DNA of 64,000 nt from an uncultured Gammaproteobacteria bacterium (GCA_964504365.1 CAZDDW010000001.1:132293-196292), one strand, 5' to 3'. Shown: positions 9,998-63,932, numbered from the stretch's first letter. The notes: generated by a model not told the origin, from the letters alone. Numbers and translations: made by a program.

Positions 9998-10067
9998 ACT
10001 CCCCCTCCTTTCAAAGGAGGGGTTAGGGGTGGTTCTGATTACAAAGTAGTTTCGATACAATTATACC

Positions 10068-10115
10068 CAGAACCCCCCTTAAGTCCCCCCTTGGAGAAGG
10101 GGGGAGAGCAAAATT
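10068..10115. repeat. 48-bp conserved element CAGAACCCCCCTT-N5-CCCCCCTTGGAGAAGGGGGGAGAG-CAAAATT (copy 1 of 2)
   Basis: about 43/48 identical to 31715-31761; C6-loop-G6 hairpin; upstream GGGGTGGTTCTG (10026-10037) complementary to CAGAACCCCCC. Confidence 0.7.
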
Positions 10116-10143
10116 AACCCGTTTAAATAAGCTTATCGTCTCT

Positions 10144-10172
10144 TGACAGATAAGCTTATTTGTGTTAATCTG
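10144..10172 (+). promoter_or_regulatory. sigma70-like promoter TTGACA-17-TAATCT flanked by a perfect 13-bp inverted repeat (AAATAAGCTTATC/GATAAGCTTATTT, 10130-10167)
   Basis: consensus -35, 17-nt spacer, -10; AGGAGG RBS 10188-10193 and ATG 10200 downstream. Confidence 0.55.
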
Positions 10173-10199
10173 CCAAGTCTTATTCAAGGAGGAGAGACG

Positions 10200-10649
10200 A
10201 TGTCCGAAAGCATTCCCAGTCCGGATTCGGGAAAGTCGAAAAAGGGCATGTCCCCGCTTTGGCACCTGGTATACATTCTGTTGTTGATCGTCGGCTTTGT
10301 GGTTCTGATGAAAACCAGCTTTCAGTCAAGGGCCCGAGTCGTGGATCTACAGCAGCAGGTCGATGCCTACAAGGCGATGGTCAATACGACTACCGCCCGT
10401 GCCATGATTCTCGGATGCGATCCGTATCAGGCTCAGAACAAGGACCAGAACTGGTGCGGCGCCAAGCTGGCCAACGGTCGTGACAACAAGACCTTTCACA
10501 TCTACGATGAAGACGGGGTGACCCACTTCTTCCGGCTCTACCTGGTCGATCAGCCGATCACTGGTCAGCTGGAAGGAACGGAGGGTACCAAGATCATGCT
10601 CGGTCATGTCGAGATCCGGTACATCCAGTCTGACTACCCCGATTCCTAG
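10200..10649 (+). CDS. membrane-anchored hypothetical protein (NWCG-motif family, paralog 1); GC-rich
   Basis: start at ATG 10200 after AGGAGG; N-terminal TM; shares GCD...NWCG core with next gene. Confidence 0.5.
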   Translation: MSESIPSPDSGKSKKGMSPLWHLVYILLLIVGFVVLMKTSFQSRARVVDLQQQVDAYKAMVNTTTARAMILGCDPYQAQNKDQNWCGAKLANGRDNKTFHIYDEDGVTHFFRLYLVDQPITGQLEGTEGTKIMLGHVEIRYIQSDYPDS

Positions 10650-10672
10650 CCGGAACGCTCGGCTGGTCGTTG

Positions 10673-10704
10673 CTCTGGAACACGTGTTCCAGAGTTTTTT
10701 CTTT
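10673..10704 (+). terminator. intrinsic terminator
   Basis: ctctggaacacgtgttccagag hairpin plus T6. Confidence 0.6.
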
Positions 10705-10708
10705 TGGC

Positions 10709-10737
10709 TTGACGAAATGGTATCAGTGTCGTAAGTT
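10709..10737 (+). promoter_or_regulatory. promoter TTGACG-17-TAAGTT
   Basis: spacing and hexamers; GGAG RBS then ATG 10775. Confidence 0.45.
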
Positions 10738-10774
10738 GTCGTTAGTTGATACATGTCAACAGACTGGAGCAAAG

Positions 10775-11173
10775 ATGCGCAGGACATTGATTATCTGTCT
10801 GGGAATTGGTATGGTCGCAGTCATCTGTTTGACTTTGCTGGCAATGCGTTGTGTCCACCTGAACGGACAGGTCGCACAGCTGCAGGACAAGGTCGAAGTG
10901 CAGGATCTTTACCTGGAGCAGATCGTTCGCATCGTTGCTGTCGAAGGATGTGATTCGATCGATCGTTCTTACAAGCAGCACAACTGGTGCGGTGATCTGA
11001 TCGTCTGGAACGAAGGCGATGACACCCGCATCACCCTGACTCGACGGGCTGACAATCGCGGTTACTACATGAACTTGCACTGGAACAATTACCCGATCAT
11101 CAACGACGCCAACGGCAGTCAGCACATCACTGGCGAAGCACACGACTACTCGCTCAAGCACGTGGACGAGTGA
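10775..11173 (+). CDS. membrane-anchored hypothetical protein (NWCG-motif family, paralog 2); GC-rich
   Basis: ATG at 10775 preceded by GGAG; TM then coiled-coil then KQHNWCGD motif aligning with paralog 1. Confidence 0.5.
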   Translation: MRRTLIICLGIGMVAVICLTLLAMRCVHLNGQVAQLQDKVEVQDLYLEQIVRIVAVEGCDSIDRSYKQHNWCGDLIVWNEGDDTRITLTRRADNRGYYMNLHWNNYPIINDANGSQHITGEAHDYSLKHVDE

Positions 11174-11183
11174 CAAACTTCTA

Positions 11184-11212
11184 CTGGGGAACACGTCCCC
11201 AGCTTTTTTATT
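11184..11212 (+). terminator. intrinsic terminator
   Basis: ctggggaacacgtccccag hairpin plus T-run; loop sequence related to terminator at 10673. Confidence 0.6.
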
Positions 11213-11273
11213 CCACAGTGCACAAATAAGCATATTTATGGTATTATATTAGAGATATAATAAGGAGGAATAT

Positions 11274-16310: not shown

Positions 16311-17078
16311 TTAGTCCGGTCGGTGGAGCTCGGAGCGCATCATCCGGAAGCCAGTGTGAGTGGCTGTGTCTAGTCGGTAGGAGCGAGTGACATGAAGTCG
16401 CTCGCTAACGCTGGAAACGGGCCGTCTTGAGCCTTGACGACGACGGGAATGGTCGCTGTGTGCGTTGCGCATATGGTCCTCGACCACACGAGCACGCCAG
16501 GCCGTGGCCACACGCATGCAGGTTTCCATGTCGATATCGTCTTCGCGGTACATCAGTTCTGCCAACGGACCACCGTTGTGCAGATTGGTGATCAGCCACT
16601 CGAAGCAGGCTGGGTCGTGCAGATAGCGGCGATTGCGTTCTTCGAGAATGATCCCGATTGCTTCAGCAATCTCTGGGTGTATCTGCTTGCGACGGAAGGT
16701 GCCTTCCTTGAAGCGATAGCTCAGGCGATCCATCTTGATACGGATTGCCCGCATCACTCGCTTGTGGTGAGTATCCTGAACTCGCTGTCGAAGACCAAGC
16801 ATGGTAGCTTCGACTTGCGAGTCACGCGGCGTGTGGATGTTCAGCCAGTCGCTGTGGCGGTATTTCCGCCGCAGATCACCGGAGCGCCCTCGTTTTGACA
16901 CCCACAGGGTGCGTACGGTTCGCTCTTCTGTCAGCGGTAGTTTGCCCAGCGTCTGAGCCAGGGCAGCTGGATCTGCTTCTCGGACAAAGTCCAGGGAAAG
17001 AACTGGGAAGGTTTGTTCCGCGACCCGCACCTCGTGGCGCGGACCGAGATCGGCCAGTGCCTCGATTGCGGGACTCAT
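16311..17078 (-). CDS. hypothetical basic protein; GC-rich insert
   Basis: ORF track 16311-17228; probable start ATG 17078 after AAGGAGG; Arg-rich; overlapped by many spurious opposite-frame ORFs typical of high GC. Confidence 0.4.
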   Translation of the reverse strand: MSPAIEALADLGPRHEVRVAEQTFPVLSLDFVREADPAALAQTLGKLPLTEERTVRTLWVSKRGRSGDLRRKYRHSDWLNIHTPRDSQVEATMLGLRQRVQDTHHKRVMRAIRIKMDRLSYRFKEGTFRRKQIHPEIAEAIGIILEERNRRYLHDPACFEWLITNLHNGGPLAELMYREDDIDMETCMRVATAWRARVVEDHMRNAHSDHSRRRQGSRRPVSSVSERLHVTRSYRLDTATHTGFRMMRSELHRPD

Positions 17079-17153: not shown

Positions 17154-18122
17154 ATGAAACCAAAAGTAATTGTCATTCTTGGTCCGACTGCGTCGGGCAA
17201 GACTTCCTTGAGTATCAAACTTGCTCAAGAGTTTTCTGGTGAAGTGATCAGTGTTGATTCACGACAGATTTATCGGGACATGAACATCGGAACCGCAAAG
17301 GAGCCCCAAGACCAGACAACCAGACAACCAGACAACCAGACAGCTGGCGAGTATCTGATCCAAGGCATCCCACATCACGGAATCGATATCCGGAATCCAA
17401 ATGAAGAGATGTCTGCAGCTGAGTTCAAGGAGTATGCAGAACAGAAAATCAAGGAAATTGTGGATCGTGGGAAAGTGCCAATTTTGGCTGGTGGTACAGG
17501 ATTTTGGATCCAGGCAATCATAGATAACCTTAAAATTCCGGCTGTTGCTCCTGATCCGACCCTGCGTCAAGTGCTTGATGGCAAGAGTACAGAGCAGTTA
17601 TTTGAGATGTATAAAGAAAAAGACCCTCAAGGAGCCAAGACGATTGATAAGGACAATCGGTTGCGCTTGATACGAGCCGTAGAGGTTTGTATCAAGTCTG
17701 GTCAGCCATTTTCTGAACAGCAGCAAAAAGGTGAACCAAAGTATGATGTATTGCAGATTGGGATTGATGTAGATCGCAAAGAGTTGTACAACAGAATTGA
17801 TCAACGCGTAGGTCAGATGATCGAGCAGGGTCTTGTTGAAGAGGTAAAACAGATTCGAGAAAAGTATGGTTGTGTCTCACTAGCTCTGACCGGAATCGGC
17901 TACCGTCAGATTTGCGAGTATCTGGACCAGGTTCAGGAACCCTCCTTCGCCAAGGCTTCGGAGGGTGACCTTCTCGCGCAAGCCGTGGAGAAGGTCAAAA
18001 AAGACACACGACATTATGCCAAGCGTCAGTTGAGTTGGTTTCGCCGTGATAAACGGATCAAGTGGGTCAAGGGGTATGAGGAAGCAGAGGATTTGGTTAG
18101 GCGATTCTTGAATGACCAATGA
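17154..18122 (+). CDS. miaA: tRNA dimethylallyltransferase
   Basis: GPTASGKT P-loop; contains in-frame (ACCAGACA)x4 repeat expansion at 17318-17345 encoding QTTRQPDNQT; last codons and stop lie in a palindromic repeat element. Confidence 0.85.
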   Translation: MKPKVIVILGPTASGKTSLSIKLAQEFSGEVISVDSRQIYRDMNIGTAKEPQDQTTRQPDNQTAGEYLIQGIPHHGIDIRNPNEEMSAAEFKEYAEQKIKEIVDRGKVPILAGGTGFWIQAIIDNLKIPAVAPDPTLRQVLDGKSTEQLFEMYKEKDPQGAKTIDKDNRLRLIRAVEVCIKSGQPFSEQQQKGEPKYDVLQIGIDVDRKELYNRIDQRVGQMIEQGLVEEVKQIREKYGCVSLALTGIGYRQICEYLDQVQEPSFAKASEGDLLAQAVEKVKKDTRHYAKRQLSWFRRDKRIKWVKGYEEAEDLVRRFLNDQ

Positions 18123-18235
18123 TCAATAACCAATGAACAAGATAATAATCAATAACCGAATAACCTAATTCGATTATTAGATTATTCTATCATTATTTCG
18201 ATCATTGGAATTTGGTTATTGGTTATTTTTGTATT
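18115..18235. repeat. palindromic AATAACC-unit intergenic element (MITE/REP-like), homolog of 58448-58560
   Basis: left arm (g)atcaataaccaatgaacaagataat..., right arm ...gatcattggaatttggttattggttatt; shares caagataat, gatcattgg and aataacc blocks with the eno-gpmI element. Confidence 0.6.
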
Positions 18236-18264
18236 GAAAAAGCCCCGGACCAGATGGTCCGGGG
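18233..18264 (-). terminator. intrinsic terminator (minus strand)
   Basis: ccccggaccagatggtccgggg hairpin with T-run on the minus strand. Confidence 0.55.
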
Positions 18265-18284
18265 ACTTGCGTTCTAGGGAAAGG

Positions 18285-18932
18285 TCAGATATCCAGGGCC
18301 CTGAGGTTGGTCTCGATCAGACGTCGGATATCGTGGTAAGTTTCCAGATCGTACTCAACCTGGAGGGCTGGGAAGAACATATCCGGACGCAGATGGTGCA
18401 GCAGCTGCTTGACGATCTGGTCCGGGGGTAGGGTCTTGTTGACCTTTTGACACCCCTCGAGTCCGAGACCAGAGTGGCCGCGGCCGAGCAGGATGTGGAA
18501 GCTGTCCAGGGCAGTGCCACTGACGTTGTTGGCCACGAAAACACGCGGCAGCTGGTGTCGCTTGCTGGGCAGATCAGCCCCATGCAGATCACAGCCAAGG
18601 ATGTGGACTGTATCGACCCTTCCATGGTAGCAGAAGCCTCTGGCCTGACTGATCCGAACATCCCCCATCAAGCAGCCAATGAACTCGGCCTCCTCGATGT
18701 CGCTCTGGCTCAGATCCATGCCCCGGAGGTCACAGGCAAAGAAGCTGCCGCTCAGCTTGACACCACGCAGATCGAATCCACGTAGATCCTGCCCACCGAA
18801 ATATTGGACCGCTGCCAACCGAGGATGGCCGCATTCCTGGCAGACCGGATCTTCGGTCCCGTCCACGAAGAGCTGCAGACGTCGGCAGCGCTCGTTCTGA
18901 CAAACCACGAACCAACTATTATACTCGCTCAA
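18285..18932 (-). CDS. pentapeptide-repeat protein with N-terminal CxxC...CxxC zinc ribbon; GC-rich insert
   Basis: DLRGFDLRGVKLSG...DLRGMDLSQSDI pentapeptide repeats. Confidence 0.5.
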   Translation of the reverse strand: MSEYNSWFVVCQNERCRRLQLFVDGTEDPVCQECGHPRLAAVQYFGGQDLRGFDLRGVKLSGSFFACDLRGMDLSQSDIEEAEFIGCLMGDVRISQARGFCYHGRVDTVHILGCDLHGADLPSKRHQLPRVFVANNVSGTALDSFHILLGRGHSGLGLEGCQKVNKTLPPDQIVKQLLHHLRPDMFFPALQVEYDLETYHDIRRLIETNLRALDI

Positions 18933-19073
18933 AACACCGCTCCTCTCAAAAGAGGTAAAGAACTAAGAGCAGGGGAATTCCTGCTCACCCTTGAAAACAA
19001 GAGCTTAATATAGCATAAAAATAAGGATCCGTCAACCCCTAAAGTGAGTTATTTGACTAAAAAAGCACCATTT

Positions 19074-19586
19074 TCAGGTGCTTTCGTGTGTTGAGCTTGG
19101 GAGGTGCTCGCGAAGGCGTTCGACCAGCTCGCGACAGTGATTGACAGCTGTTTCTAGCTGAGTGCTGTATGGCTGGGTTTCACGTTGACGCTCGAACTGT
19201 AGTAGGCAACATTCGAAGCTGTATAGGTACATGGCCACAGCTTCATCGTGCGAGATTGGCTCTTCCACCCGGCGTGGTTTGAGACGGGCCAAGCGCAGCG
19301 GGATTCGGACCAGTAGGCGATGGGATCGATATCGCCGCATGCGACGCTTGCTCGTCCGATGGTCTTGTAAGCTTGATTGGTGGATGTCTTGCACCGCACG
19401 CAAAACAATGGTTTCCAGTTGTTCGACTGGGAAGCGCCACTGCCCAGCAATCCGGTGTGGATTGAGCAGATCAGCTACTTCCTGTCTGGGTGTCAGAGTC
19501 GGCGGCGATGAGCTACCGAGCTCGGAATGCCCACCAGCCAGGCGCCCAGCCAATCCTCCGAGTGCAGATGTTGCGCGGAAAATCAT
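19074..19586 (-). CDS. hypothetical protein; GC-rich insert
   Basis: ORF with minus-strand terminator 19056-19083 downstream. Confidence 0.35.
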   Translation of the reverse strand: MIFRATSALGGLAGRLAGGHSELGSSSPPTLTPRQEVADLLNPHRIAGQWRFPVEQLETIVLRAVQDIHQSSLQDHRTSKRRMRRYRSHRLLVRIPLRLARLKPRRVEEPISHDEAVAMYLYSFECCLLQFERQRETQPYSTQLETAVNHCRELVERLREHLPSSTHEST

Positions 19587-19655
19587 ATGCCTCTCCTGTT
19601 TGGGTTGAAGGATCGAGGAAGTAGGTTAGCATGGACCAGGCTTGTTGTCAACCTA

Positions 19656-21199: not shown

Positions 21200-21954
21200 A
21201 CTAGGGTTTCTTTAACATTTCGATACAAAATTGTCCAGTAAATAATATAAAGTGGCAGGAAGAATATATTTATCACATTTTCGACTATTTCTGGCCATAC
21301 AGGGATTTGATCAGTTCCAATTACAGCAGGATCAAGACCAGTGATTAACATACCTAGGCCGATGAGGAGAGAGAGGGCAACTAGGTAAATAAAGACCAGG
21401 ATTAGTGGTCCAAAAATTATTCGACGGACCATAGACCAGAAGCGTCCAGTAACCAGAGATCGACTATAGCTCAAGGCTTCTACCCCTCGTTTATTATCAA
21501 GAACTACCGCAGTTTGCGCAAAAACAAACCATATACTAAAGATAATTCCAGGGATGATGAGTAGAAGAAAACCGCCAAGTACCGCCAAGGTGCTTATCAG
21601 GGCTACCAAAAGTACAGGAATAATCACTTGCCAACTAAGTCGATTAACTAATGCGGGATCTATCTTTTTCCTACTCAGCGTTTCATTAACTATGATCATG
21701 ATTGCGTTGCTGGCCCAGATGGTGATGATTCCTTGGCTAAAAATGATCCCGATATACAGCGGTAACCATGGTCCAAAGATCTGATCCACGTCAGGAACTA
21801 AAAGGTAAAAGACAACTAAAGCCAAGTAGGGAACTAAGATCCATGCTGCGTATCCTATTAGGGTAGCAAAGTTAGAACGATAAAACTGCCAGCTACTGGC
21901 AAGTAGTGGCAGCACTCGAATCATCTTTTGTTTTTTATTTACTGGCTTTGGCAC
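21196..21954 (-). CDS. polytopic membrane protein, hypothetical
   Basis: 6-8 predicted TM helices; overlaps neighbours by 4 and 20 nt (operon). Confidence 0.5.
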   Translation of the reverse strand: MPKPVNKKQKMIRVLPLLASSWQFYRSNFATLIGYAAWILVPYLALVVFYLLVPDVDQIFGPWLPLYIGIIFSQGIITIWASNAIMIIVNETLSRKKIDPALVNRLSWQVIIPVLLVALISTLAVLGGFLLLIIPGIIFSIWFVFAQTAVVLDNKRGVEALSYSRSLVTGRFWSMVRRIIFGPLILVFIYLVALSLLIGLGMLITGLDPAVIGTDQIPVWPEIVENVINIFFLPLYIIYWTILYRNVKETLV

Positions 21955-22852
21955 TTTGGTAGATTAGGTAGTCGGTAATGAGAATAATTGGATTAATCAC
22001 AACAGTGATAATAATCACGATTAAAGTGTTCAGGATCGAGAATAAACGTTCAGCCAAATCAATATTCAATCCAGCCATGCCCATAACCAAGGCATAGATA
22101 ATGGCTATAACAATAAACTGGACAATAGCAAAGACTAAAAAGTAAAGCACTTTTGGTAGAAGAACACGCCAAAGTATTGGCCAGAAGCGATGGCCAACTG
22201 CTTTACGACTTGCTGTAAAAGCGGCTCGTCCGCGCTGTTTATCTAAAACCAAAGCATAGCCGATAAAGAAATATCGTACAGCCCAGTAAAGGACCAGGAT
22301 GAACATTACTAAAAATCCAAGGATCAGGGCAATCGTGCCGATGCTTCCCAAAAGCGGCATTGTCTTTATCGCTCCAATAGCTATTAAGATAAAACCAGGT
22401 ACTGTAGCTAGGCCAGGTAGGAGTAGAAGTAAGGTGAACAAAATATTAACTAGCACAAATGGCCAAAAGTACTTCCAGCTGCTGCTGGCAACTTCTCGTA
22501 AGTTGCGTCGCTTTCCAGTCGCTTGTAGATCAATAAGACGAACCAGGGCAATGAAAACCCAGAATCCGATAACTGGGGCAACAATAAAACCAGTAAACAT
22601 GGCTAAGTAAATTCCAATGTCTTGGGCCAGAGTTAGTTCCGCATTGAGTGCCAGCTCGACTGATGTTGGGTATAGAGCAAAAGCAATTGCATAAAGAACG
22701 GCCAGAACTAGGAGCCAGGCTGAGACACTAATCAGTTCCACAAAATTTTTGCGGTAATGATCCCAGGCATGGTCAATGATCTGTCCGACAGTAATTAACT
22801 GTTGAGGCATATTTTTTTGTTTTATTTTTTGATTGATGAAATGATTTGCCAA
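21935..22852 (-). CDS. polytopic membrane protein, hypothetical (paralog of preceding gene)
   Basis: similar TM architecture and WxL/YxxA motifs to 21196-21954. Confidence 0.5.
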   Translation of the reverse strand: MANHFINQKIKQKNMPQQLITVGQIIDHAWDHYRKNFVELISVSAWLLVLAVLYAIAFALYPTSVELALNAELTLAQDIGIYLAMFTGFIVAPVIGFWVFIALVRLIDLQATGKRRNLREVASSSWKYFWPFVLVNILFTLLLLLPGLATVPGFILIAIGAIKTMPLLGSIGTIALILGFLVMFILVLYWAVRYFFIGYALVLDKQRGRAAFTASRKAVGHRFWPILWRVLLPKVLYFLVFAIVQFIVIAIIYALVMGMAGLNIDLAERLFSILNTLIVIIITVVINPIILITDYLIYQSAKASK

Positions 22853-23537: not shown

Positions 23538-23567
23538 TAAAATAAAGAAACCGCGGTGAAGCGGTTT
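23538..23567 (-). terminator. intrinsic terminator (minus strand)
   Basis: aaccgcttcaccgcggtt hairpin plus T-run on minus strand. Confidence 0.5.
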
Positions 23568-23572
23568 GGAGT

Positions 23573-23869
23573 TCAGAGTTCCGTGGGGTCTGGTGCGCGC
23601 TGCGTCAGCCAGTTGAACGGAGTGCCAATCAGAGTGAACAGATCCATGGTCTCGGCTCCACAGCGGTTGCAGTGGGCGTGATCACCACCCCGGGTCTCGT
23701 TCATGTCCCAGTGCGGAGTAGCCGGACCGATCAGGTCTGGGAAGGATTCAGCACAGGCTTGGCAAACATCCGGAGCACTCATGGCCAGTCGGCTGCGCAG
23801 CCGATCGCCACACCAGCTACAATGGGCAGCTCCGTCTTCTCGTTGTTCATCACATCGTCCGCAGGCCAT
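23573..23869 (-). CDS. Cys-rich zinc-finger protein; GC-rich insert
   Basis: CGRC...CSWCG...CQAC...CNRCG motifs. Confidence 0.4.
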   Translation of the reverse strand: MACGRCDEQREDGAAHCSWCGDRLRSRLAMSAPDVCQACAESFPDLIGPATPHWDMNETRGGDHAHCNRCGAETMDLFTLIGTPFNWLTQRAPDPTEL

Positions 23870-23884
23870 GGTTACCTCCGAGTA

Positions 23885-24379
23885 TCAGTGGATAACGAAT
23901 TGAAGCATTGTCTTGACCGGTGGCAGTTCAACCACGATCAAGAAGCCGATATCTTTGGATTCACTTTCCGGATCCGGGTACCTGACAATTATGCCCAGTT
24001 CCTGCCCTGGCCAGACCCGCTGCAGCTCATCGGCAATCTCGTGCAGTTTGGCCTCAGAGGTGAAGTTGTGTCTCGCTATGTCTTCTGGGGTGAACGTTCT
24101 TGACCATTGGCCGTGCAAGAGCAGCTGACCAATCACGTCGTAGTGGTGAATGAATTCACGGATATCATCCGTGAGCAGGCTGGAAAGCTCATCTCCGAGA
24201 TCGTCAAAAGCTTGCTTGACACCTCTGCGCTGTTGCTCTGCCTTGATCGCAATCTCCCGGTTGTCGTCGACGCTATCGCCAATGTTGCCGGTCAGGGCAG
24301 CTTCTTTCAGCCACCGATTCAGGTTGTCAGCAACCATCTGCTGCCGACGAACGTGTAATCCTAATGCTCCAGGTTTCAT
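23885..24379 (-). CDS. hypothetical protein; GC-rich insert
   Basis: RBS AGGAAAGGAAG before ATG; promoter TTGACA-17-TAACAT at 24445-24473 (minus). Confidence 0.4.
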   Translation of the reverse strand: MKPGALGLHVRRQQMVADNLNRWLKEAALTGNIGDSVDDNREIAIKAEQQRRGVKQAFDDLGDELSSLLTDDIREFIHHYDVIGQLLLHGQWSRTFTPEDIARHNFTSEAKLHEIADELQRVWPGQELGIIVRYPDPESESKDIGFLIVVELPPVKTMLQFVIH

Positions 24380-24485
24380 TTTCTTCCTTTCCTTGGGTCG
24401 TTGGTTTCCCCTTCCTTGGGGTTGAAAGAGCGAGTAAGAGAAGAATGTTATCTTATTTAGGCTACTTTGTCAAGCCTGTCAAGAT

Positions 24486-24517
24486 TAAATAAAAAACCCT
24501 GTACCAGATTCAGGGTC
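24486..24517 (-). terminator. intrinsic terminator (minus strand)
   Basis: accctgaatctggtacagggt hairpin followed by TTTTTTATTT on minus strand. Confidence 0.6.
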
Positions 24518-24556
24518 CATCGGTGCAGGGCAAGCCGCGATATGCGGTTAAGTGGT

Positions 24557-24985: not shown

Positions 24986-25039
24986 ATTTACCTCCCTTGA
25001 AGGTCCATTAGGCTAAAACTTATCACCATTTTATCCTTT

Positions 25040-25068
25040 TTGTCAACCGTCCGGACATCTGGTAAGAT
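25040..25068 (+). promoter_or_regulatory. promoter TTGTCA-17-TAAGAT; its -35 shares the hexamer with a divergent minus-strand TTGACA-18-TAAGTT promoter (25017-25046)
   Basis: hexamers and spacing read on both strands. Confidence 0.4.
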
Positions 25069-45723: not shown

Positions 45724-45729
45724 ACTTCA

Positions 45730-46806: not shown

Positions 46807-46809
46807 TAT

Positions 46810-47729: not shown

Positions 47730-47894
47730 GGCAATATTAAAGCACGATTAGGGAAAAAGAAAAAGGCGCCCGGGAGTTGGGCGCGAAAGGAAGGTGGGCC
47801 ACCAGACAGGGCTTAGGGCAGAGGTCGGAGGCGGGGGTCGATCCGCCCAGGGGCCCTGGCGGCATCTGGTGACCCACCGCAAGTTGTATTGATA

Positions 47895-50635: not shown

Positions 50636-50722
50636 GAGTTATCTGGTTTTCTGGTTATCTTGTTGTCTAGTTTCAGGAACCAAATAACCAGAGAACTAGA
50701 CAACCAGACAACTTTTGATATC
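50636..50722. repeat. palindromic element built of ctggtt/gttgtctagtt and aaccagacaac units (same family as 6024-6103)
   Basis: tctggttttctggttatcttgttgtctagtt ... aaccaaataaccagagaactagacaaccagacaac. Confidence 0.6.
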
Positions 50723-50733
50723 ATGTCTTCACT

Positions 50734-51762
50734 ATGTCAACTCCCATATCACAATACGACTACGACTTACCCACTGAATTCATAGCCCAAACACCAGTTG
50801 AGCCGCGGGATCAGTCTCGTTTGTTGGTTTTGAATCGTGACACTGGATCAATTGAGCATAAGCGATTCTATCAGATTGGAGATTTTTTACGTGATGATGA
50901 TGTGTTGGTGTTTAACGATACCAAGGTTTTTAAGGCTCGATTGCGGGGGGAAGTTGGAATACATGAGATCGAGGTTTTTCTGCTCCGCGCTGAGGATCAT
51001 GTTTGGCAGGCCATGGTTCGACCGGGACGGAAGATTGCGATTGGCTCGGAGATCGGGTTTGAAGATGGTCTGAAAGCGCATGTGATTGAAAAGTTGCCAA
51101 ACGGAATAGTTAAGATCGAATTTAGTGTTGGGGTCGACCAGGTGCTTGAATACTGCGATAGGCACGGTGAGATTCCAGTTCCTCCATACGTTAAACAACA
51201 GCCGGATCAGCTTGATACGTATCAAACCGTGTATGCTCGTGAAACTGGTTCTGTGGCCGCACCAACTGCCGGATTCCATTTCACAGATCAATTACTCGAT
51301 GAGCTGCGAGATCGCGGAATCCAAATGGAATACATCACTTTGCACGTTGGAATCGGTACGTTCCAGCCAGTTAAGACCGAGACGCTAGAAGAACACGAGA
51401 TGCATAGCGAGTTTGTGCAGGTTGATCAAGATACAGCCGATCGTATCAATCAGGCCAAAGTTGCTGGCCGCCGGATAGTTGTGGTTGGGACAACTACGAC
51501 TCGTGCACTCGAAGGTGTAGCCAGACAATCTGCTTCAGGCAAACTCGAGGCTTTTGCAAGCGATGTTAATCTGTTTATCACCCCAGGATACGAATTTAAA
51601 GTTGTTGATGCTTTAGTCACCAACTTTCATTTACCAAAATCAACCTTACTCGCCCTGGTCTCAGCCCTGGCCAGCCGTGAGCAAATATTCAAAGCTTACG
51701 AAGAAGCAAAGCAACACGGCTACCGTTTTTACTCCTTCGGTGATGCCATGTTCATTGCTTGA
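50734..51762 (+). CDS. queA: S-adenosylmethionine:tRNA ribosyltransferase-isomerase
   Basis: 342 aa; YDYDLP N-terminus and FHF/PKSTL motifs. Confidence 0.9.
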   Translation: MSTPISQYDYDLPTEFIAQTPVEPRDQSRLLVLNRDTGSIEHKRFYQIGDFLRDDDVLVFNDTKVFKARLRGEVGIHEIEVFLLRAEDHVWQAMVRPGRKIAIGSEIGFEDGLKAHVIEKLPNGIVKIEFSVGVDQVLEYCDRHGEIPVPPYVKQQPDQLDTYQTVYARETGSVAAPTAGFHFTDQLLDELRDRGIQMEYITLHVGIGTFQPVKTETLEEHEMHSEFVQVDQDTADRINQAKVAGRRIVVVGTTTTRALEGVARQSASGKLEAFASDVNLFITPGYEFKVVDALVTNFHLPKSTLLALVSALASREQIFKAYEEAKQHGYRFYSFGDAMFIA

Positions 51763-51787
51763 CAAAAGTCAGCTTATTTGCTAAGCT
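51759..51787 (+). promoter_or_regulatory. promoter TTGACA-17-TAAGCT with AGCTTATTTG spacer and inverted repeat agtcagctta/taagctgact
   Basis: hexamers and spacing; spacer motif shared with promoter at 10144. Confidence 0.5.
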
Positions 51788-51831
51788 GACTCCTTCGTTA
51801 GCTCCTTGAATCTGAACGTTGGGAGAAAAAT

Positions 51832-52329
51832 ATGTTCGTCAAAATCGCTTTGTGGACGATTTTTTGTGCAATCGTGACCGTCATTCTGATCCTGGTCAAG
51901 GTGCCTCACCCGATCTGGATCGGGATCGAAGTCCTGTTCGCCCCGCTCGAGATCTGGGCCGCCTGGATCATCGTCAGCTGGGTCCTCGGCACTCTGTTCG
52001 ATGGCTGGGATACTCACTCCAGAGGGAAGGAGTATCAGGCCACGGCCAACACCTTCGAGGTCATGGTCATTGGAGAAGGGGTCCGTGAAGTACTCGAGGC
52101 CAATGGTGGGTCGATCAGTGACCCGAAAGACGTTCATTGGCTAGGTCGCCATGGTCACCATATGCACTATGTGACCATTCCGTACGATCGTGAACCAGAC
52201 CTGTTCGATGGGGTCACCCTGATGACCTTGCCTGACAGCACGGTCTTGGCGCTCACGCCATGGCAGGATGAACAGACTGGGTGGCCGAAGAAACCATTCG
52301 TTCCTTCTCGCCTGGAACTCAAGAACTGA
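51832..52329 (+). CDS. membrane protein, hypothetical; GC-rich insert
   Basis: two N-terminal TM helices; GGGAGA RBS; terminator 52332-52356. Confidence 0.4.
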   Translation: MFVKIALWTIFCAIVTVILILVKVPHPIWIGIEVLFAPLEIWAAWIIVSWVLGTLFDGWDTHSRGKEYQATANTFEVMVIGEGVREVLEANGGSISDPKDVHWLGRHGHHMHYVTIPYDREPDLFDGVTLMTLPDSTVLALTPWQDEQTGWPKKPFVPSRLELKN

Positions 52330-52331
52330 AC

Positions 52332-52356
52332 ACCGCTCACTGCGAGCGGTCTTTTA
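52332..52356 (+). terminator. intrinsic terminator
   Basis: accgctcac-t-gcgagcggt hairpin plus CTTTT. Confidence 0.55.
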
Positions 52357-57194: not shown

Positions 57195-58463
57195 ATGTCA
57201 TCTGCAATAGAACACATTCACGCTCATGAGATTCTGGACTCTCGTGGCAACCCAACACTGAACGTCTCGGTGTTATTAAAGAATGGTAAGATCGGTCGAG
57301 CTTCAGTGCCCTCTGGTGCTTCCACTGGAACGCACGAGGCTTTGGAGTTACGCGATGGAGATAAGAAGCGTTATCGCGGTAAAGGTGTTTTGAAAGCTGT
57401 TCGTAATGTTAATGTTAAGATCGCCAAAGAGTTGGTTGGGATGTCTGTTTTGCACCAACGCGAGATCGATCAAAAGATGATCATGCTAGACGGGACGCTG
57501 AATAAAAAGAAGCTGGGAGCAAACGCGATCTTGGGAGTTTCGCTTGCTTGTGCTCATGCTGGAGCGAAGTCAAAGAAGATGCCGTTATACGAATACATCC
57601 GCTGGGCCTATGATTTGCAATACAAGAACTATCGACAACCAACCCCGTTGATGAACGTGTTCAATGGTGGAGCACATGCTGATACGAATCTAGACATGCA
57701 AGAGTTTATAATTATTCCCCATGGTATTAAGACCCAGCATCGACGTGTTCAGGCTGGTGCTGAGATATTTCATGCTCTAGGTGATGTTCTGTCTCGCGCT
57801 GGACTTGATACGGATGTTGGAAATGAGGGTGGCTATGCTCCGGACGTGGGCAAGACTGAACAAGCTCTTGAATACATTATGAAAGCAATCAAGAAGGCTG
57901 GTTACAAGCCTGGCAAACAGATCTCACTTGGGCTTGATGTGGCTGCCTCTGAGTTTTATAACGTAAAAAAGAATCGTTATGACTTAAGTACTGATCGACG
58001 GAAATTATCGGCTGATGGAATGACTGATCTTTATGAAGCCTGGATGAAAAAATATCCGCTGTTGTCTATCGAAGATGGATTGGATCAGGATGCTTGGGAG
58101 GATTGGCAAGAGCAAACAAAACGAATTGGTAAAAAAGTTATTTTGATCGGTGATGATTTGTTTGTTACTCAAAGCGAGCGGTTGCAAAAGGGAATTGATG
58201 AGAAGGTGGCCAATGCTATCTTGATCAAGTTGAACCAGGTCGGCAGCCTTTCAGAAACCATTGACACGATCTTGCTGGCTCAGGCAAATAAGTATAAGAT
58301 CGCTGTATCACATCGCTCTGGTGAAACCTGTGACACAACTATTGCTGATCTGGCTGTGGCTGTAAACGCGGAATACATCAAGACCGGCAGTTTGTCTCGA
58401 TCAGAAAGGTTGGCAAAGTATAATCGATTAATGGAGATCGAAGAAGAGATTAATAACCAATAA
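57195..58463 (+). CDS. eno: enolase; last codons (INNQ) and stop supplied by the repeat element
   Basis: SGETEDTTIADLAV-like motif (SGETCDTTIADLAV), Mg-binding residues. Confidence 0.9.
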   Translation: MSSAIEHIHAHEILDSRGNPTLNVSVLLKNGKIGRASVPSGASTGTHEALELRDGDKKRYRGKGVLKAVRNVNVKIAKELVGMSVLHQREIDQKMIMLDGTLNKKKLGANAILGVSLACAHAGAKSKKMPLYEYIRWAYDLQYKNYRQPTPLMNVFNGGAHADTNLDMQEFIIIPHGIKTQHRRVQAGAEIFHALGDVLSRAGLDTDVGNEGGYAPDVGKTEQALEYIMKAIKKAGYKPGKQISLGLDVAASEFYNVKKNRYDLSTDRRKLSADGMTDLYEAWMKKYPLLSIEDGLDQDAWEDWQEQTKRIGKKVILIGDDLFVTQSERLQKGIDEKVANAILIKLNQVGSLSETIDTILLAQANKYKIAVSHRSGETCDTTIADLAVAVNAEYIKTGSLSRSERLAKYNRLMEIEEEINNQ

Positions 58464-58560
58464 CCAAATAACAATGATCAAGATAATGACCAAATGATCT
58501 AATGTTCGAAAATTTGAACATTGATTATCATCTCGGTCATTGATTATTGATCATTGGTCA
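58448..58560. repeat. palindromic AATAACC-unit element between eno and gpmI (homolog of 18115-18235)
   Basis: aataaccaataaccaaataacaatgatcaagataatgacc ... ggtcattgattattgatcattggtcattt. Confidence 0.6.
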
Positions 58561-58563
58561 TTT

Positions 58564-60607: not shown

Positions 60608-61696
60608 ATGAAAGCAGTTATTTTAGCCGGTGGTGGGGGAACTAGGCTTTGGCCAATGAGTCGTAAAGACAAGCCAAAGCAATTTTTTAATTTGATTTCT
60701 GATGATCCTTTGATTCGCGATACTTATCGACGGTTGTTGCGCATCTTCGCGGTTGAGGATATTTACTTTGCTGTTTCACCACAGATCGTTCCTCTGATTA
60801 AAGAAGCTTTTCCTGAGGTTGAAGACGATCATATTATTGTTGAGCCAGCTAAGCGTGATACTGGTCCGGCCATGGGTTATGCCGCGGCCATCTTGGAACT
60901 ATCTTGTCCGGACGAGTCAATCATGTTCTTTCCATCTGATCATTGGATCAATGATAAGGATCAGGAAACGTATCTGCGCTGTTTCAAAGTAGCTGATCGT
61001 TTGATTCAGGAAACTGGTAAGTTGCTTGACATTGCTATTGCTCCATCGTTTCCGAGTACGGTTCTTGGATATACTCGAGTTGGTGATCAGCATGAAACGA
61101 TCGATGGAATTGAGGTGTACAAGTTTCGTGGCCATACTGAGAAACCGGATTTTGAAACTGCGAAAGGTTTTCTTGAGGAAGGGAGTTATCTTTGGCACGC
61201 TAACTACTACATGTGGACACCACGTAAGTTTGTGGCTGCGTTGGAAAAGCATGCACCGCTGATTGGCCAGGCCTTGCGTCAGATACAAAAGAAGTTGAAA
61301 GCAGGGGATCGCGCGGGGATTGATCAGATTTTTGCTGATGTACCTTCGATCTCAATTGATTATGCCATGACTGAGAAGTTAGACAATGAAGACATGTTGA
61401 TTATAAAGGGTGACTTTGGTTGGTCTGACATCGGGGCTTGGGACACGTTGCATGATCAACGAGTTGATACCGATGATGTTTCAAAGAACGTGACCAAGGG
61501 TCAGGTCATCGCAGTTGATTCAAATGATAATTTATTTTATGCTTCGCATGAGCGCGTGATCGCGGCTGCTGGTGTGTCGAACCTGGTTGTTGTTGATACT
61601 GGCGACGTGGTGCTGGTCTGCGACAAGAATCAGGCTCAACGCGTGAAAGAACTGATTACAGAAATTAAAACACAAGGTTTAGAACATCTTTTATGA
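60608..61696 (+). CDS. mannose-1-phosphate guanylyltransferase-like nucleotidyltransferase
   Basis: AVILAGGGGTRLWPMSR motif. Confidence 0.7.
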   Translation: MKAVILAGGGGTRLWPMSRKDKPKQFFNLISDDPLIRDTYRRLLRIFAVEDIYFAVSPQIVPLIKEAFPEVEDDHIIVEPAKRDTGPAMGYAAAILELSCPDESIMFFPSDHWINDKDQETYLRCFKVADRLIQETGKLLDIAIAPSFPSTVLGYTRVGDQHETIDGIEVYKFRGHTEKPDFETAKGFLEEGSYLWHANYYMWTPRKFVAALEKHAPLIGQALRQIQKKLKAGDRAGIDQIFADVPSISIDYAMTEKLDNEDMLIIKGDFGWSDIGAWDTLHDQRVDTDDVSKNVTKGQVIAVDSNDNLFYASHERVIAAAGVSNLVVVDTGDVVLVCDKNQAQRVKELITEIKTQGLEHLL

Positions 61697-62664
61697 AACA
61701 CAAGTCACGGATATTAGCCACACTTATCACCATATTCTTACTCCTTTTTGCTTTGACTGTTTGGGAACTGTTTTTGCGTCAGCCGGATCAGGAGACTGGT
61801 GTGGTTGAGGTAACGATTGAAAGCGGTTCGACTTTAGGTGAGGTGGCTGATTTGTTAAAAGATAAAAAAGTAATCGCTAGCACTTGGTTATTTGAGTGGT
61901 ATGCGCGAATTCGTGGAGTTGATCGTGATGTGGTTGCTGGTACGTTTTTCTTAAATCCAGAGCAGAGTATTCTTGATGCCATCCGTGCCGTGACTGAACC
62001 GCAATTGGCTGACGAGCGTCAGGTAACAATTCTGGAGGGCTGGAGCCTGCGTGAGATTGGGTCCTATTTAGTTGAGCAGGGTGTGATTGATAATGAAGAT
62101 GAACTTTACACGATTACTGGAAGCCCAGTACAGGCAAATAGTTACGAAGGGTATTTGTTTCCAAATACTTATCGTGTCTTTGCGGATGCAACTGCACAAG
62201 ACGTGGTCGATAAGATGCTGGCTAACTTTGAAGAGCAGGTAACTGATCAAATGCGAGCTGATATTACAGCTCAAGGAAAGACATTGGATCAGGTGATTAT
62301 TATGGCTTCGATTTTGGAGCGTGAGGCGCGTGGGGAAGAGGACATGGGCTTGGTTGCGGATATCTTTTGGCGACGTTGGGAAATCAATTGGGCTTTGCAA
62401 TCCTGTGCTTCTGTAAACTATATTACTGGCAAGAACGATCCAGCGATTACGTACGACGATCAGCAGATCGACTCGCTGTACAACACTTACAAATATCCAG
62501 GCTTGCCACCAGGCCCGATTTCCAATCCTGGCCTGCAAGCGATCGAAGCTGCGATATATCCAACAGCGAACGACTACTGGTACTTCCTGAATGACGAAGA
62601 AGGTACAACCCACTTCGCAACCACGAACGAAGAACACGCTGCGAACAAAACAGAACATCTATAA
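61693..62664 (+). CDS. mltG: endolytic murein transglycosylase MltG (YceG-like)
   Basis: N-terminal TM then YceG domain. Confidence 0.75.
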   Translation: MKHKSRILATLITIFLLLFALTVWELFLRQPDQETGVVEVTIESGSTLGEVADLLKDKKVIASTWLFEWYARIRGVDRDVVAGTFFLNPEQSILDAIRAVTEPQLADERQVTILEGWSLREIGSYLVEQGVIDNEDELYTITGSPVQANSYEGYLFPNTYRVFADATAQDVVDKMLANFEEQVTDQMRADITAQGKTLDQVIIMASILEREARGEEDMGLVADIFWRRWEINWALQSCASVNYITGKNDPAITYDDQQIDSLYNTYKYPGLPPGPISNPGLQAIEAAIYPTANDYWYFLNDEEGTTHFATTNEEHAANKTEHL

Positions 62665-62679
62665 CGAAAAGACAGGGGC

Positions 62680-62708
62680 TTGACCCTGTTTTTTAATTGC
62701 TGTAAGCT
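62680..62708 (+). promoter_or_regulatory. promoter TTGACC-17-TAAGCT overlapping the mltG terminator hairpin (62672-62695)
   Basis: hexamers and spacing; GGAGGG RBS and GTG start at 62742. Confidence 0.45.
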
Positions 62709-62741
62709 AATCAACCACAGCACATTCCAACGGAGGGAATT

Positions 62742-63899
62742 GTGAGAACATATCGAATCGAAGAGCAGACGCTGTTGACCAAGTATGGTGAGCACACGGC
62801 CAAGTATCAGGTCGTGTTGAACAATACGATTTACATCCTGGCCGAAGACTGGTTAGACATCGCCCGTGGCGCAGTGTTCATCTGGAACAAGCGCATGGGG
62901 ATTTACCAGATTTGGCGCGGTGGTTTGTTCGACGCAATTCGAGCCACCAAGCACGTGCAGGCTGGTTACGGTCTGGCTGATGGGCAGCATGACGAGTTCG
63001 GTGAGATCAATCAGCTCACCCTGGCTCGGGTTACTTTGGGTATGCTCCTGCGGCAGATTTGGGACTACGGCAATCTGACTGACCGGCAACGTGCCGAGTA
63101 CGCTGAGGATTGCATTGCTCTGGCTGAGGAGCTGGGGTTGGTTCGTGATGAAGACAAGGCCAAGGCCCGGGACCGTATTGCATTGGCCATCAGTGTGATC
63201 GATTCACTCGGTCGCTACAATCCGCCTTCCCGCGCACCCATGCTTTGGTCTTCGGCTGATCTGCTCAAGTATCGGCAGGAAACGATTCGTTTCATTGCCA
63301 AGTGGGTTGATGTTCGTCAGTTCGCCTTGTTGACCATGCTTGATGAGATTTACGAGACCGTGAATTTCGCCTATCACCAGATCGACAAACTGACTCTGCA
63401 AGATGAACAAGGGCGAGGCGGCAGGCATCAGATCATACAAATCGAAGATCTTGTCGAGCGACTTCAGGTGCCAATAGTTCTACCTTTCCGACATGGCTTT
63501 GCTCGTACGGCCACAGACCTAGATTCGGTGCGTGTATTGCTATCCAGAGAGCAGTTGAGTCCAGCTGAGAACCGGCAGATTGGCCGTCTTTACGACCGAT
63601 CACAGCGGGCCATGGCTTTGTACATGATCCGTCGTGACCTGGAGCCGATCATCTGGGGGTTGACTTCGGAGCTAGCCAGGCGTAAAGCCAATCGGCGTCC
63701 GAAAGTGCTCGACCAGGCCATGCGCGAGCTGGCCGCCTTCACCGACTACATTAGCTCTATTCAGAGCTTTGATCTGGCTTTCCGTAATCCAGTGCTGCCA
63801 CGTATGTACCGCCATCTCAGGGCTGTTACGCACAGCTATACACACGATGACTGGTCTGGTGTGCGCAAACACCTGCGCCGCGCTACAGTCATGTTCTGA
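62742..63899 (+). CDS. hypothetical protein; GC-rich insert
   Basis: 385-aa ORF, higher GC than flanks, own promoter and terminator. Confidence 0.4.
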   Translation: MRTYRIEEQTLLTKYGEHTAKYQVVLNNTIYILAEDWLDIARGAVFIWNKRMGIYQIWRGGLFDAIRATKHVQAGYGLADGQHDEFGEINQLTLARVTLGMLLRQIWDYGNLTDRQRAEYAEDCIALAEELGLVRDEDKAKARDRIALAISVIDSLGRYNPPSRAPMLWSSADLLKYRQETIRFIAKWVDVRQFALLTMLDEIYETVNFAYHQIDKLTLQDEQGRGGRHQIIQIEDLVERLQVPIVLPFRHGFARTATDLDSVRVLLSREQLSPAENRQIGRLYDRSQRAMALYMIRRDLEPIIWGLTSELARRKANRRPKVLDQAMRELAAFTDYISSIQSFDLAFRNPVLPRMYRHLRAVTHSYTHDDWSGVRKHLRRATVMF

Positions 63900-63905
63900 C
63901 TTCTA

Positions 63906-63932
63906 CGCGTCCTGAAACGGACGCTTTTTTAT
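63906..63932 (+). terminator. intrinsic terminator
   Basis: gcgtcc-tgaaac-ggacgc hairpin plus T6. Confidence 0.6.

Follow-up and report, generated by a model that had tools for sequence, protein, structure and literature searches.

The stretch analysed here (hereafter the window) is 64,000 nucleotides (nt) of DNA filed under an uncultured Gammaproteobacteria bacterium (GCA_964504365.1, CAZDDW010000001.1:132293-196292). It is a patchwork of AT-rich housekeeping genes, termed the backbone, and nine blocks of genes rich in guanine plus cytosine (GC), termed modules. One block, at 39225-43508, is an array of small cassettes joined by a repeated hairpin, and it alone among the blocks has mobile-cassette anatomy. 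Mean GC of the whole window is 46.3% and the blocks sum to ~13.4 kb (21% of the window). The nearest genomes are Candidatus Uhrbacteria metagenome-assembled genomes (MAGs; gatB identity 80%, 78% and 73%), and from sequence similarity we assign the window to the chromosome of a Candidatus Uhrbacteria (Patescibacteria, or Candidate Phyla Radiation, CPR). ARAGORN found no tRNA or tmRNA in the window, and Rfam recovered no family from regions free of open reading frames (ORFs), either in the window (gathering and E-value thresholds) or in its relatives (gathering threshold).

A 500-nt profile rose to a GC of 0.50-0.63 and was elevated at each of the nine blocks that the first-pass annotation had called GC-richer than their housekeeping neighbours. 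The 20 ORFs within blocks were compared with 41 backbone ORFs, using start codons from public gene calls where available. Module ORFs had a GC of 0.51-0.64 (mean 0.561) and a GC at third codon positions (GC3) of 0.55-0.86 (mean 0.651); the backbone gave 0.30-0.49 (mean 0.442) and 0.28-0.48 (mean 0.408) respectively. Neither range overlaps (Mann-Whitney, p=3e-10), a test that is partly circular because GC itself served to define the classes. The two pools were also distinct in GC-normalised dinucleotide signature (delta*=0.094), with 9 of 9 blocks closer to the module pool and 10 of 10 backbone segments closer to the backbone pool. Uniform composition, which the same annotation had named as grounds for abandoning its view, is thus not what computation returned.

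The two classes also differ at their translation starts. A GGAG-type Shine-Dalgarno site lies within 20 nt of the start in 19/20 module and 9/41 backbone genes (Fisher, p=4e-8), although GGAG is commoner by chance in GC-rich leaders and the ribosome-binding site guided the choice of a few module starts. The sequence before backbone starts is typically A/T-rich (AATAATATG, for example), and some of these starts look leaderless (TGCTATAATAAGCTTATG at tmk; TATAAT ~12 nt before the start at 36797). Among the backbone genes at 23502, 36797, 888, 3608 and 27131, several have TATAAT so close to the start codon (within ~7-12 nt) as to suggest leaderless mRNAs. L251, a distant Parcubacteria MAG with a backbone GC of 0.43-0.46 and no Shine-Dalgarno sites, holds two adjacent small genes of GC 0.65 and 0.68 (GC3 0.84 and 0.88) led by AAGGAGG. 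Since the same dichotomy is found in closer relatives and in L251, it is a property of the lineage and not of the window alone. PMC9297842 reports that the anti-Shine-Dalgarno motif is less often detected in part of the Parcubacteria.

Because the housekeeping genes that flank the blocks directly adjoin each other in relatives, we regard the blocks as accessory insertions. The genes gatB, miaA and miaB abut in two relatives and are separated in the window by blocks 16311-17078 and 18285-19586. Similarly, ftsW, a gene of 110 amino acids (aa), rplY, DUF3048, prmC, a nucleoside triphosphate (NTP)-transferase gene, prfA, rpmE and queA are contiguous in four relatives, an order that the window interrupts with 5.8 kb (39170-44940) and with block 47895-48449. 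The hypothetical proteins of the AT-rich backbone have homologues in dozens of 80 syntenic CPR loci, and the module proteins have none there save three in the closest relative, L009 (50%, 27% and 24% identity). Most modules are absent from the closest relatives, the exceptions, present in some relatives, being 62742, 16311 (whose L009 homologue, at 50% identity, occupies the same slot) and, weakly, 19074 and 23573. Relatives bear GC-rich, Shine-Dalgarno-led small ORFs of their own in other slots. Behind gatB (80% identity), L009 has a promoter-leader at 10020-10134 that is clearly homologous to window 19651-19590 and is followed by an unrelated ORF; this comparison suggests that a gene was replaced just downstream of a conserved expression signal. 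Slots that are empty or differently filled in relatives, together with the phylogeny of module 62742 described below, bear out the earlier proposal that these are acquired genes of foreign composition.

The 385-aa product of 62742-63899 has only four homologue clusters among 5.8 billion proteins (72, 67, 57 and 54% identity). All that could be placed, in four relatives, occupy the same slot, 3' of YceG and 5' of an APH-family kinase gene. The gene is under purifying selection (ratio of nonsynonymous to synonymous substitution rates, dN/dS, ~0.18). Between relatives L233 and L235, YceG, NTP-transferase and enolase are 89-94% identical and the module 55%; between the window and L233 the same flanking proteins are 72-84% identical and the module 71%, and between the window and L235 the values are 72-84% and 57%. 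Moreover, the proportion of synonymous differences (pS) between the window and L233 is 0.59 for the module, below the 0.70-0.74 of the flanking genes. Because the relationships of the module conflict with those of its flanking genes, we interpret them as allele replacement, and horizontal exchange between lineages at a fixed slot best explains the sequence comparisons. The orthologues are Shine-Dalgarno-led and GC-richer than their neighbours in the relatives too (0.51 vs 0.38-0.43; 0.48 vs 0.36-0.44). GC3 is high even with synonymous sites at saturation, so a donor signature in decay does not suffice, and continued exchange, GC-biased recombination or selection would be needed to uphold it. 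The AlphaFold2 model of the family (predicted local distance difference test, pLDDT, 47) was not used. A conserved, GC-rich, ORF-free segment of ~280 nt bounded by GGCCAGCCACC...GGTGGCTGGCC lies upstream of the homologue in L233 (9415-10000), L235 (8539-8892) and L236 (4742-5095); it is absent from the window, has no Rfam match and is a candidate structured RNA.

The modules carry a recognisable set of expression signals. The exact pattern TTGACA-N17-TAnnnT occurs at 11 sites in the window against 0.63 expected. Six sites precede modules (10143, 19623, 24445, 30356, 31668, 51759), two lie at the array head (43480, minus strand; 43614, plus strand) and three precede backbone operons (33719, 50603, 52370); one-mismatch versions lie upstream of 18932, 24985, 48449 and 62742. 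A relaxed sigma-70 scan gave no excess over shuffled sequence (20 vs 24.5; 31 vs 22.5; 26 vs 27.7). Terminator-like sites outnumbered those in shuffles (34 vs 18.6; 27 vs 20.8; 34 vs 18.9), and canonical hairpin/T-run terminators follow nearly all blocks. Module promoters have in common TTGACAA, a TGn extension and a weak -10 (TAACCT, TAAGCT, TAATCT, TAACAT). All seven promoters that the first-pass annotation listed as verified (10144, 24445, 30356, 31668, 51759, 62680 and 43479) are present, and the blocks it left unchecked contain exact or one-mismatch sites at 19651-19623, 19035-19007 and 48547-48519; block 16311-17078 has no convincing promoter. A consensus promoter and terminator of its own is therefore typical of a module, but the backbone has them too and the array cassettes are promoterless. 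Nor are the blocks all single-gene modules, as had been proposed, for they contain 1, 2, 3, 4 and ~8 genes.

Further motifs lie around these promoters. The leader motif C[CT]TT[CG]AA (CYTTSAA) is found up to 60 nt upstream of 8/20 module and 1/41 backbone genes (p=3e-4), and in the array cassettes as well. Reading the leader motif TCAAC as the -10 of an extracytoplasmic function (ECF) sigma factor, with TAACC as -35, fitted two promoters only and was dropped. At 10143 and 30356 the motif ATAAGCT(T/C)AT immediately follows the -35, with a second AAATAAGC 22-23 nt upstream of each; further occurrences are at 10127 and 23501, and the palindrome ATAAGCTTAT overlaps the tmk start as well. The related AATAAGCAT directly follows the -35 of backbone promoter 11219, and at 51759 the common AGCTTATTTG is present but in another register. 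The spacer motif once ascribed to the promoters at 10144, 30356 and 51759 is thus genuine but minor: it holds for the first two, but not in the same register for the third, and a related form occurs at a backbone promoter. Metagenome and viral scans with the 17-mer CCATCACAGAACAYGAT returned single chance matches only.

Other repeats were seen in passing. A 39-nt repeat (85% identity; hairpin CCCCCCTT...AAGGGGGG) comes after dnaE (10065-10103) and after rplA (31712-31750), each time close to the outer edge of a GC-rich block, and is probably a terminator element common to both places. The octamer AACCAGAC, in exact or variant form, is repeated in runs at 6047-6100, 17291-17352 and 50637-50720, two of them in promoter regions (upstream of dnaE; between rpmE and queA) and one within the 5' part of miaA. 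A ~105-nt AT-rich imperfect palindrome (AATAACCAATAACCAAAT...ATTGATTAT...TTGGTTATTGA) has two intergenic copies, ~81% identical, at 18123-18240 (between block 18285 and miaA) and 58450-58563 (upstream of gpmI), and could be a regulatory element or one resembling a miniature inverted-repeat transposable element (MITE).

The coordinates of the blocks and of the array are given in Table 1. Pfam matches among module ORFs were limited to a pentapeptide repeat (18285-18932, E=8e-7), Phage_30_3/NADAR (30449-30916, E=3e-28) and a weak DZR zinc ribbon, in agreement with the earlier description of hypothetical proteins that include zinc ribbons, a pentapeptide-repeat protein and a NADAR protein. Most module proteins are orphans. 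The two genes of the first block are tandem paralogues, both with GCD...NWCG, and their terminators (GGAACACGTGTTCC, GGAACACGTCCCC) are alike. A defence-island reading was without support because searches of the module proteins against PHROGs, NCBIfam and PADLOC gave no function beyond NADAR.

Table 1. Features of the GC-rich blocks and the cassette array (positions counted from the first nucleotide of the window).
Feature	Position	Strand	Details
Block 1	10143-11233	+	promoter 10143-10171, TTGACA-17-TAATCT
Block 1 genes	10200-10649, 10775-11173	+	paralogous membrane proteins
Block 1 terminators	10672-10695, 11184-11202	+	one after each gene, alike
Block 2	16311-17078	-	255-aa gene, GC 0.59, Shine-Dalgarno AAGGAGG
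Block 3	18243-19651	-	gene 19074-19586, promoter 19651-19623
Block 3 pentapeptide-repeat gene	18285-18932	-	promoter 19035-19007, terminator 18264-18243
Block 4	23548-25045	-	genes 24557-24985, 23885-24379 (promoter 24473-24445) and zinc-ribbon 23573-23869; terminator 23567-23548
Block 5, upstream unit	29732-31696	-	promoter 31696-31668; genes 31376-31633, 30939-31367, 30449-30916 (Phage_30_3/NADAR); terminator 30445-30428
Block 5, downstream unit	29732-31696	-	promoter 30384-30356, membrane-protein gene 29772-30320, terminator 29751-29732
Block 7	47766-48547	-	184-aa signal-peptide protein gene 47895-48449; promoter 48547-48519 (TTGACC-17-TACATT); terminator 47784-47766
Block 8	51759-52350	+	promoter 51759-51787, membrane-protein gene 51832-52329, terminator 52332-52350
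Block 9	62680-63924	+	promoter TTGACC-17-TAAGCT, 385-aa gene 62742-63899, terminator 63907-63924
Array head promoter	43480-43508	-	TTGACA-17-TAGTAT with TG; conserved in L240
First array gene	42945-43139	-	64 aa, MRNFNTNCYGNVHRLRAWFT...; conserved; L240 homologue 5653-5808; P0134 88% identical
Cassette array	39225-42940	-	seven H2 junctions
H2 copies (plus-strand coordinates)	42866-42904, 42518-42556, 42140-42178, 41239-41277, 40845-40883, 40213-40251, 39805-39843	-	
Cassette genes	42229-42489, 41586-42103, 40270-40815, 39878-40177, 39225-39770	-	41586-42103, DUF6847; 40270-40815, ECF-sigma-like
Cassettes without clear ORF	42557-42863, 40884-41236	-	
Bidirectional terminator closing the array	39182-39203		
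TrmB-family regulator gene	44169-44909	-	AT-rich, same strand as the array
Divergent promoter and ORF-free segment	43614-44152	+	promoter 43614-43642, TTGACA-17-TATACT with TG, perfect consensus; ~470 nt without ORF

In the array, all cassette ORFs lie on the minus strand downstream of the one head promoter, and no sigma-70-like promoter was found at the junctions. The seven H2 copies are spaced 348-901 bp apart, and the last cassette has no repeat 3' of it. Two overlapping frames (41921-42103 and 41586-41921) make up the DUF6847 gene, whose homologues are single proteins of ~166 aa; it is either a pseudogene or a frameshift. An exhaustive HMMER search with a 1147-aa concatenation of module proteins placed three cassette proteins in families of tens of clusters. 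One of these families, that of 40270-40815, has a confident all-helical model (pLDDT 93.8), and Sigma70-ECF models match 5-7 of its 21 members. The window protein itself has no direct sigma-model match, Foldseek gave weak results, and hhalign of the family against E. coli RpoE (approximate RpoE sequence) was negligible; the cassette probably encodes a sigma factor of a divergent ECF type. On the divergent side of the array head, the segment at 43614-44152 ends in hairpins (44073-44118, 44135-44152) and its 3' end is conserved in L240. It matched no Rfam family, nothing was found by ARAGORN, and the reading of 43650-44120 as a tmRNA was dropped; the segment is possibly an undescribed non-coding RNA gene associated with the TrmB gene.

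Three of the best HMMER hits fell on one contig and led to another lineage of Uhrbacteria (L246-L249). Its backbone has a GC of ~0.40 and shares 87% identity with that of the window at gyrB and 71% at FtsW. The same array occurs there at the same locus, next to the 110-aa gene and ftsW, with the same H2. Its three promoter-distal cassettes are homologous to those of the window (amino-acid identity 60%, 49% and 31%) and follow one another as they do there, and the promoter-proximal cassettes of the two lineages are unrelated. Within the second lineage, L246 and L248 are 99.98% identical to L247, but a 507-bp cassette (c73) is missing in L247. The first H2 of L247 is a hybrid with the left flank of H2a and the right flank of H2b of L246, which places the crossover inside H2. 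An ISL3-family transposase stands at the array head in L248 (91-1430) and L247 (1-957), in place of the promoter and small-gene region of the window. In L240 the TrmB gene, head promoter and small gene are present and the array is absent; the array was therefore added behind an expression site that already existed. Both L240 and L251 have a TrmB gene with an ORF-poor, GC-rich segment and then small genes after it. The segment between the TrmB-family gene and the small accessory genes spans 1-2.6 kb without called genes (L240 5809-6850; L251 4753-7324). L251 also has repeated hairpins of its own (ACATCGGTTGTTATCGATGTTCC; CTTCCTGAGTTTTCGAAAATATCGAATGTTCAGGAAG) upstream of small genes, including DUF6847, and their 3' arms carry ATCRnTGTTC as in H2.

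H2 is a 41-nt imperfect palindrome with the sense-strand consensus CCCATCAGAGCACATGATCnAAATCGTGTTCTGTGATGGG. Directly 5' of each copy lies H1, a GC hairpin whose sequence varies and whose stem is kept in every copy, also in the second lineage, and 26-36 nt after each H2 come a Shine-Dalgarno site and the next ORF start. A covariance model of H2, run on CPR loci that total 1.5 Mb and take in the remainder of the window, matched only in the arrays of the window and of L246-L249. With no copies outside arrays in this 1.5 Mb, H2 was rejected as a dispersed MITE or repetitive extragenic palindromic (REP) element, and with no acceptable -10/-35 pair it was rejected as a sigma-70 promoter. Sense-strand folds (-25 to -38 kcal/mol) are more stable than antisense folds (-21 to -33 kcal/mol) at 7/7 junctions, with a mean difference of ~6 kcal/mol. 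By a manual count on alignment A2, transition-type mismatches on the sense strand are G.U in ~11 cases and C.A in one. Because the sense-strand RNA folds better, H2 is probably also an intercistronic processing or stabilising hairpin.

H2 may in addition be a recombination site. Its core, AGAGCACATGA|TCTAAA|TCATGTTCTGT, has the 11-6-11 layout of dif-type sites, and across 12 copies it shows a palindromic inner part, a variable left arm and centre and a nearly invariant right arm. In dif sites (PMC6449649) the 11-bp XerC arm is less conserved than the 11-bp XerD arm, the 6-bp centre varies and the inner part is palindromic. Promoter-proximal H2 copies share the same central hexamer, TCTAAA in four copies in the window and TCCAAA in the two copies on either side of the polymorphic cassette of L246. 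By manual count 18/28 positions of the core agree with E. coli dif.

Taken together, these data point to two gene classes, an AT-rich core and an exchanged GC-rich accessory pool, with one slot organised as a cassette system, and we consider this reading probable on balance. The first-pass observation was largely right and its interpretation partly so: the blocks are accessory genes that are exchanged horizontally and have expression signals in common, but the dispersed ones are no mobile-element family. Several results weigh against the two-class reading. Incongruent phylogeny was demonstrated for 62742-63899 alone among the modules, and the GC-richness of its orthologues, at saturated synonymous sites, is better accounted for by selection or a standing process than by a simple foreign origin. 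Module and backbone promoters are of the same sigma-70 type. A donor search traced all traceable homologues to Patescibacteria or unnamed metagenome contigs and found no donor; PMC12455944 describes horizontal gene transfer (HGT) among Patescibacteria as frequent and mostly intra-phylum. The dispersed blocks have no flanking repeats above chance, no mobility genes lie at their boundaries and no Phage_integrase or recombinase domain was detected among the window ORFs scanned. At least 62742-63899 and 16311-17078 are also kept in synteny in relatives. The first-pass annotation was right to see acquired accessory genes but not a dispersed family of promoter-bearing mobile modules; the only true cassette system is promoterless and had not been identified as one.

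Other origins for the blocks were weighed against the same evidence. Contaminant or chimeric sequence joined to the backbone is suggested by the abrupt shifts in composition at block edges and by several short contigs that stop inside the terminal array gene (39184-39482). However, exact-protein look-ups led to contigs from JGI 3300009374, 3300009375, 3300009405, 3300009106 and 3300009332 and from the ENA SUTE22-1 and SCRA20-1 series, in which window 9688-31199 and 30837-47169 recur at 99.98-100% identity across many independent samples and assemblers, with all backbone/module junctions in these spans identical. As related genomes also have the same architecture, the mis-assembly that the first-pass annotation wished to see excluded can be set aside with near certainty. 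(Seven short contigs from different samples terminate in the terminal gene, three of them at 39482, which poor read coverage where GC is high, or strain variants left unresolved, could explain. The only structural difference among the same-strain contigs compared was, in one sample's contig, a 42-bp in-frame deletion at 22721-22762 in the membrane-protein gene 21935-22852.) Prophage or plasmid remnants would fit the NADAR match of 30449-30916 and a weak PHROG tail-fibre match of 41586-41921, but 19 module proteins gave no tblastn match in 50,697 phage records or 72,556 plasmids, blastn found no DNA similarity in either collection, and the blocks hold no structural, integrase or replication genes. 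We therefore think remnants very improbable, although the absence of matches counts equally against the two-class reading. Vertically inherited, lineage-specific genes, whose composition reflects a standing force and not foreign origin (GC-biased gene conversion at recombination-prone loci, for example, or selection on the mRNA or translation of Shine-Dalgarno-dependent genes), have more in their favour: orthologues of 62742-63899 sit in the same slot of four genomes, GC-richer than their neighbours in each at dS above 1-2, homologues of 16311 and 19074 occupy matching slots of L009, the promoters are host-type and no donors outside Patescibacteria were found. We give this perhaps one chance in a few, for it does not account for the incongruent phylogeny of 62742, for the absence of most modules from the closest relatives and the differing content of the slots, or for the promoter-leader of the 19651 slot that L009 retains before an unrelated ORF.

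Two further alternatives concern the shared signals and the junctions. The signals may mark co-regulated accessory genes and not a mobility family, under the array ECF-type sigma factor, the adjacent TrmB-family regulator or a protein binding ATAAGCTTAT. The promoter style and TGn extension common to modules, the skewed distribution of the CYTTSAA leader, the ATAAGC motif directly after the -35 at 10143, 30356 and 11219 with its second copies 22-23 nt upstream, and the TrmB gene beside the array and beside comparable gene sets in L240 and L251 are all consistent with such a regulon. Against this, the promoters look sigma-70-type and not ECF-type, the sigma-like protein of the window lacks a direct sigma-model match, and the motifs are short and partly due to common descent of neighbouring promoter-leaders; we think a regulon possible but less likely than not. 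About as likely is that H2 is purely an intercistronic hairpin, like the RNase III sites of T7, with cassette differences arising by homologous recombination or slippage. This would agree with the sense-strand stability at all seven junctions, with the excess of G.U over C.A, with the fixed 26-36 nt before each start codon and with the lack of a recombinase nearby. It leaves unexplained why proximal cassettes differ and distal ones are shared between lineages, why proximal H2 copies have an identical central hexamer, and why, as in dif-type sites, only one of the two arms varies. The RNA-element and recombination-site readings can both hold. Against site-specific, Xer-like capture at H2, covariation in H2 was not significant, the window ORFs scanned include no recombinase, integron R'/R'' boxes are lacking, and the strain difference could stem from RecA-dependent deletion between 35-nt identical repeats; moreover, exact look-ups found the array identical, without strain variation, in all samples of the window strain. 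Because covariation was not significant, no recombinase was found in the window and RecA-dependent deletion could serve, we treat such capture as a hypothesis, and as a rather unlikely one.

In comparison with known systems, the array resembles those of integrons (sedentary chromosomal ones) in outline. Here too a single head promoter precedes small cassettes (350-900 bp), all in one orientation and mostly without promoters of their own; they code for unknown proteins or, in some cases, contain no ORF. Each junction is an imperfect hairpin repeat, near-identical within the array, distal cassettes are shared between lineages where proximal ones differ, and one cassette was precisely gained or lost at the repeat (L247). 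In contrast to integrons, no intI lies beside the head in the window, where the divergent side of the head holds an ORF-free segment and then the TrmB-family gene. H2 also has none of the R''/R' boxes of attC (RYYYAAC/GTTRRRY), its sequence is conserved and not structure alone, the coding strand has the more stable fold, a conserved gene stands between the promoter and the first junction, and the terminal cassette has no following repeat. Xer-dependent dif (pdif) modules of Acinetobacter plasmids and integrative mobile elements exploiting Xer (IMEX) offer an analogy, as small modules bounded by sites and moved by a host recombinase with no dedicated integrase, and the H2 core may be likened to their sites in its 11-6-11 layout, palindromic inner part, one near-invariant arm and variable other arm and centre. 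They differ in that H2 copies are direct repeats where dif modules have inverted flanking sites, the array is chromosomal and pdif modules lie on plasmids, only 18/28 positions match E. coli dif, and the core sits inside a longer 41-nt hairpin with a second hairpin before it. The window contains no xer gene.

The dispersed blocks are closer to the flexible genomic islets, or hypervariable regions, that streamlined genomes, including those of Patescibacteria (PMC12455944), gain by HGT; these too are strain- or lineage-specific genes of unknown function and deviant composition in hot-spot slots between core genes, exchanged mainly within the phylum. In the window, unlike in those islets, the accessory DNA is GC-richer than the host, its initiation signal differs from that of core genes (Shine-Dalgarno vs none), the units are very small (0.5-2 kb) and complete as transcription units, and their composition persists in orthologues. 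As RNA elements, the junctions recall the RNase III hairpins of T7 early genes and the REP/bacterial interspersed mosaic element (BIME) stabilisers, which are likewise conserved, irregular, intercistronic and strand-specific hairpins of ~20 bp with an internal loop. The difference is that H2 also marks cassette boundaries at which DNA has been rearranged. In the passages of PMC12455944 and PMC9297842 that were searched, neither the GC/Shine-Dalgarno split nor the array is described. Small HGT islets of Patescibacteria are already known, but no description of a GC bias in this reversed direction, of the Shine-Dalgarno split or of the hairpin-junction array was found in the literature searched.

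We propose the following model for the reading we favour. The core class would comprise AT-rich genes (GC3 ~0.41), mostly without a Shine-Dalgarno site or leaderless, that are syntenic across the clade. The accessory class would be GC-rich (GC3 ~0.65), Shine-Dalgarno-led and fast-evolving or lineage-specific, and confined to a limited number of intergenic slots, where it forms small self-contained transcription units with a strong -35 and TGn promoter of sigma-70 type, a pyrimidine-rich CYTTSAA leader and an intrinsic terminator. Such modules may be drawn from a gene pool exchanged among Patescibacteria, probably through DNA uptake and homologous recombination in the conserved flanking core genes. 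Repeated exchange, GC-biased recombination or both would keep them GC-rich, as opposed to a fading donor signature. In the array slot, the head promoter and conserved small gene are followed by promoterless cassettes joined by H1 and H2 junctions, and these cassettes may enter and leave by recombination at H2. A bolder form of this model, which we think improbable, would make the locus an integrase-less analogue of the integron in Patescibacteria: an expression site by a TrmB gene that gains and sheds cassettes at a dif/Xer-type H2, also an RNA hairpin, and so, together with slot-wise allele exchange, feeds a phylum-wide, GC-rich, Shine-Dalgarno-dependent pool (including an ECF-type sigma factor) kept apart from the core in composition and translation.

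Acquired DNA is usually AT-richer than its host. The division between a core without Shine-Dalgarno sites and a GC-rich, Shine-Dalgarno-led accessory pool is a sharp, heritable split that reverses this rule, and it poses a testable question, namely whether two modes of translation initiation operate in one cell. Genomes of CPR/Patescibacteria are tiny, and how they gain and express new functions is poorly understood. The split and the array can both be tested with existing metagenomes and metatranscriptomes. The array shows integron-like behaviour without attC sites or, in the window, an integrase; should it prove to be a true site-specific system, whether Xer-like or other, it would represent a novel means by which a major uncultured radiation captures genes.

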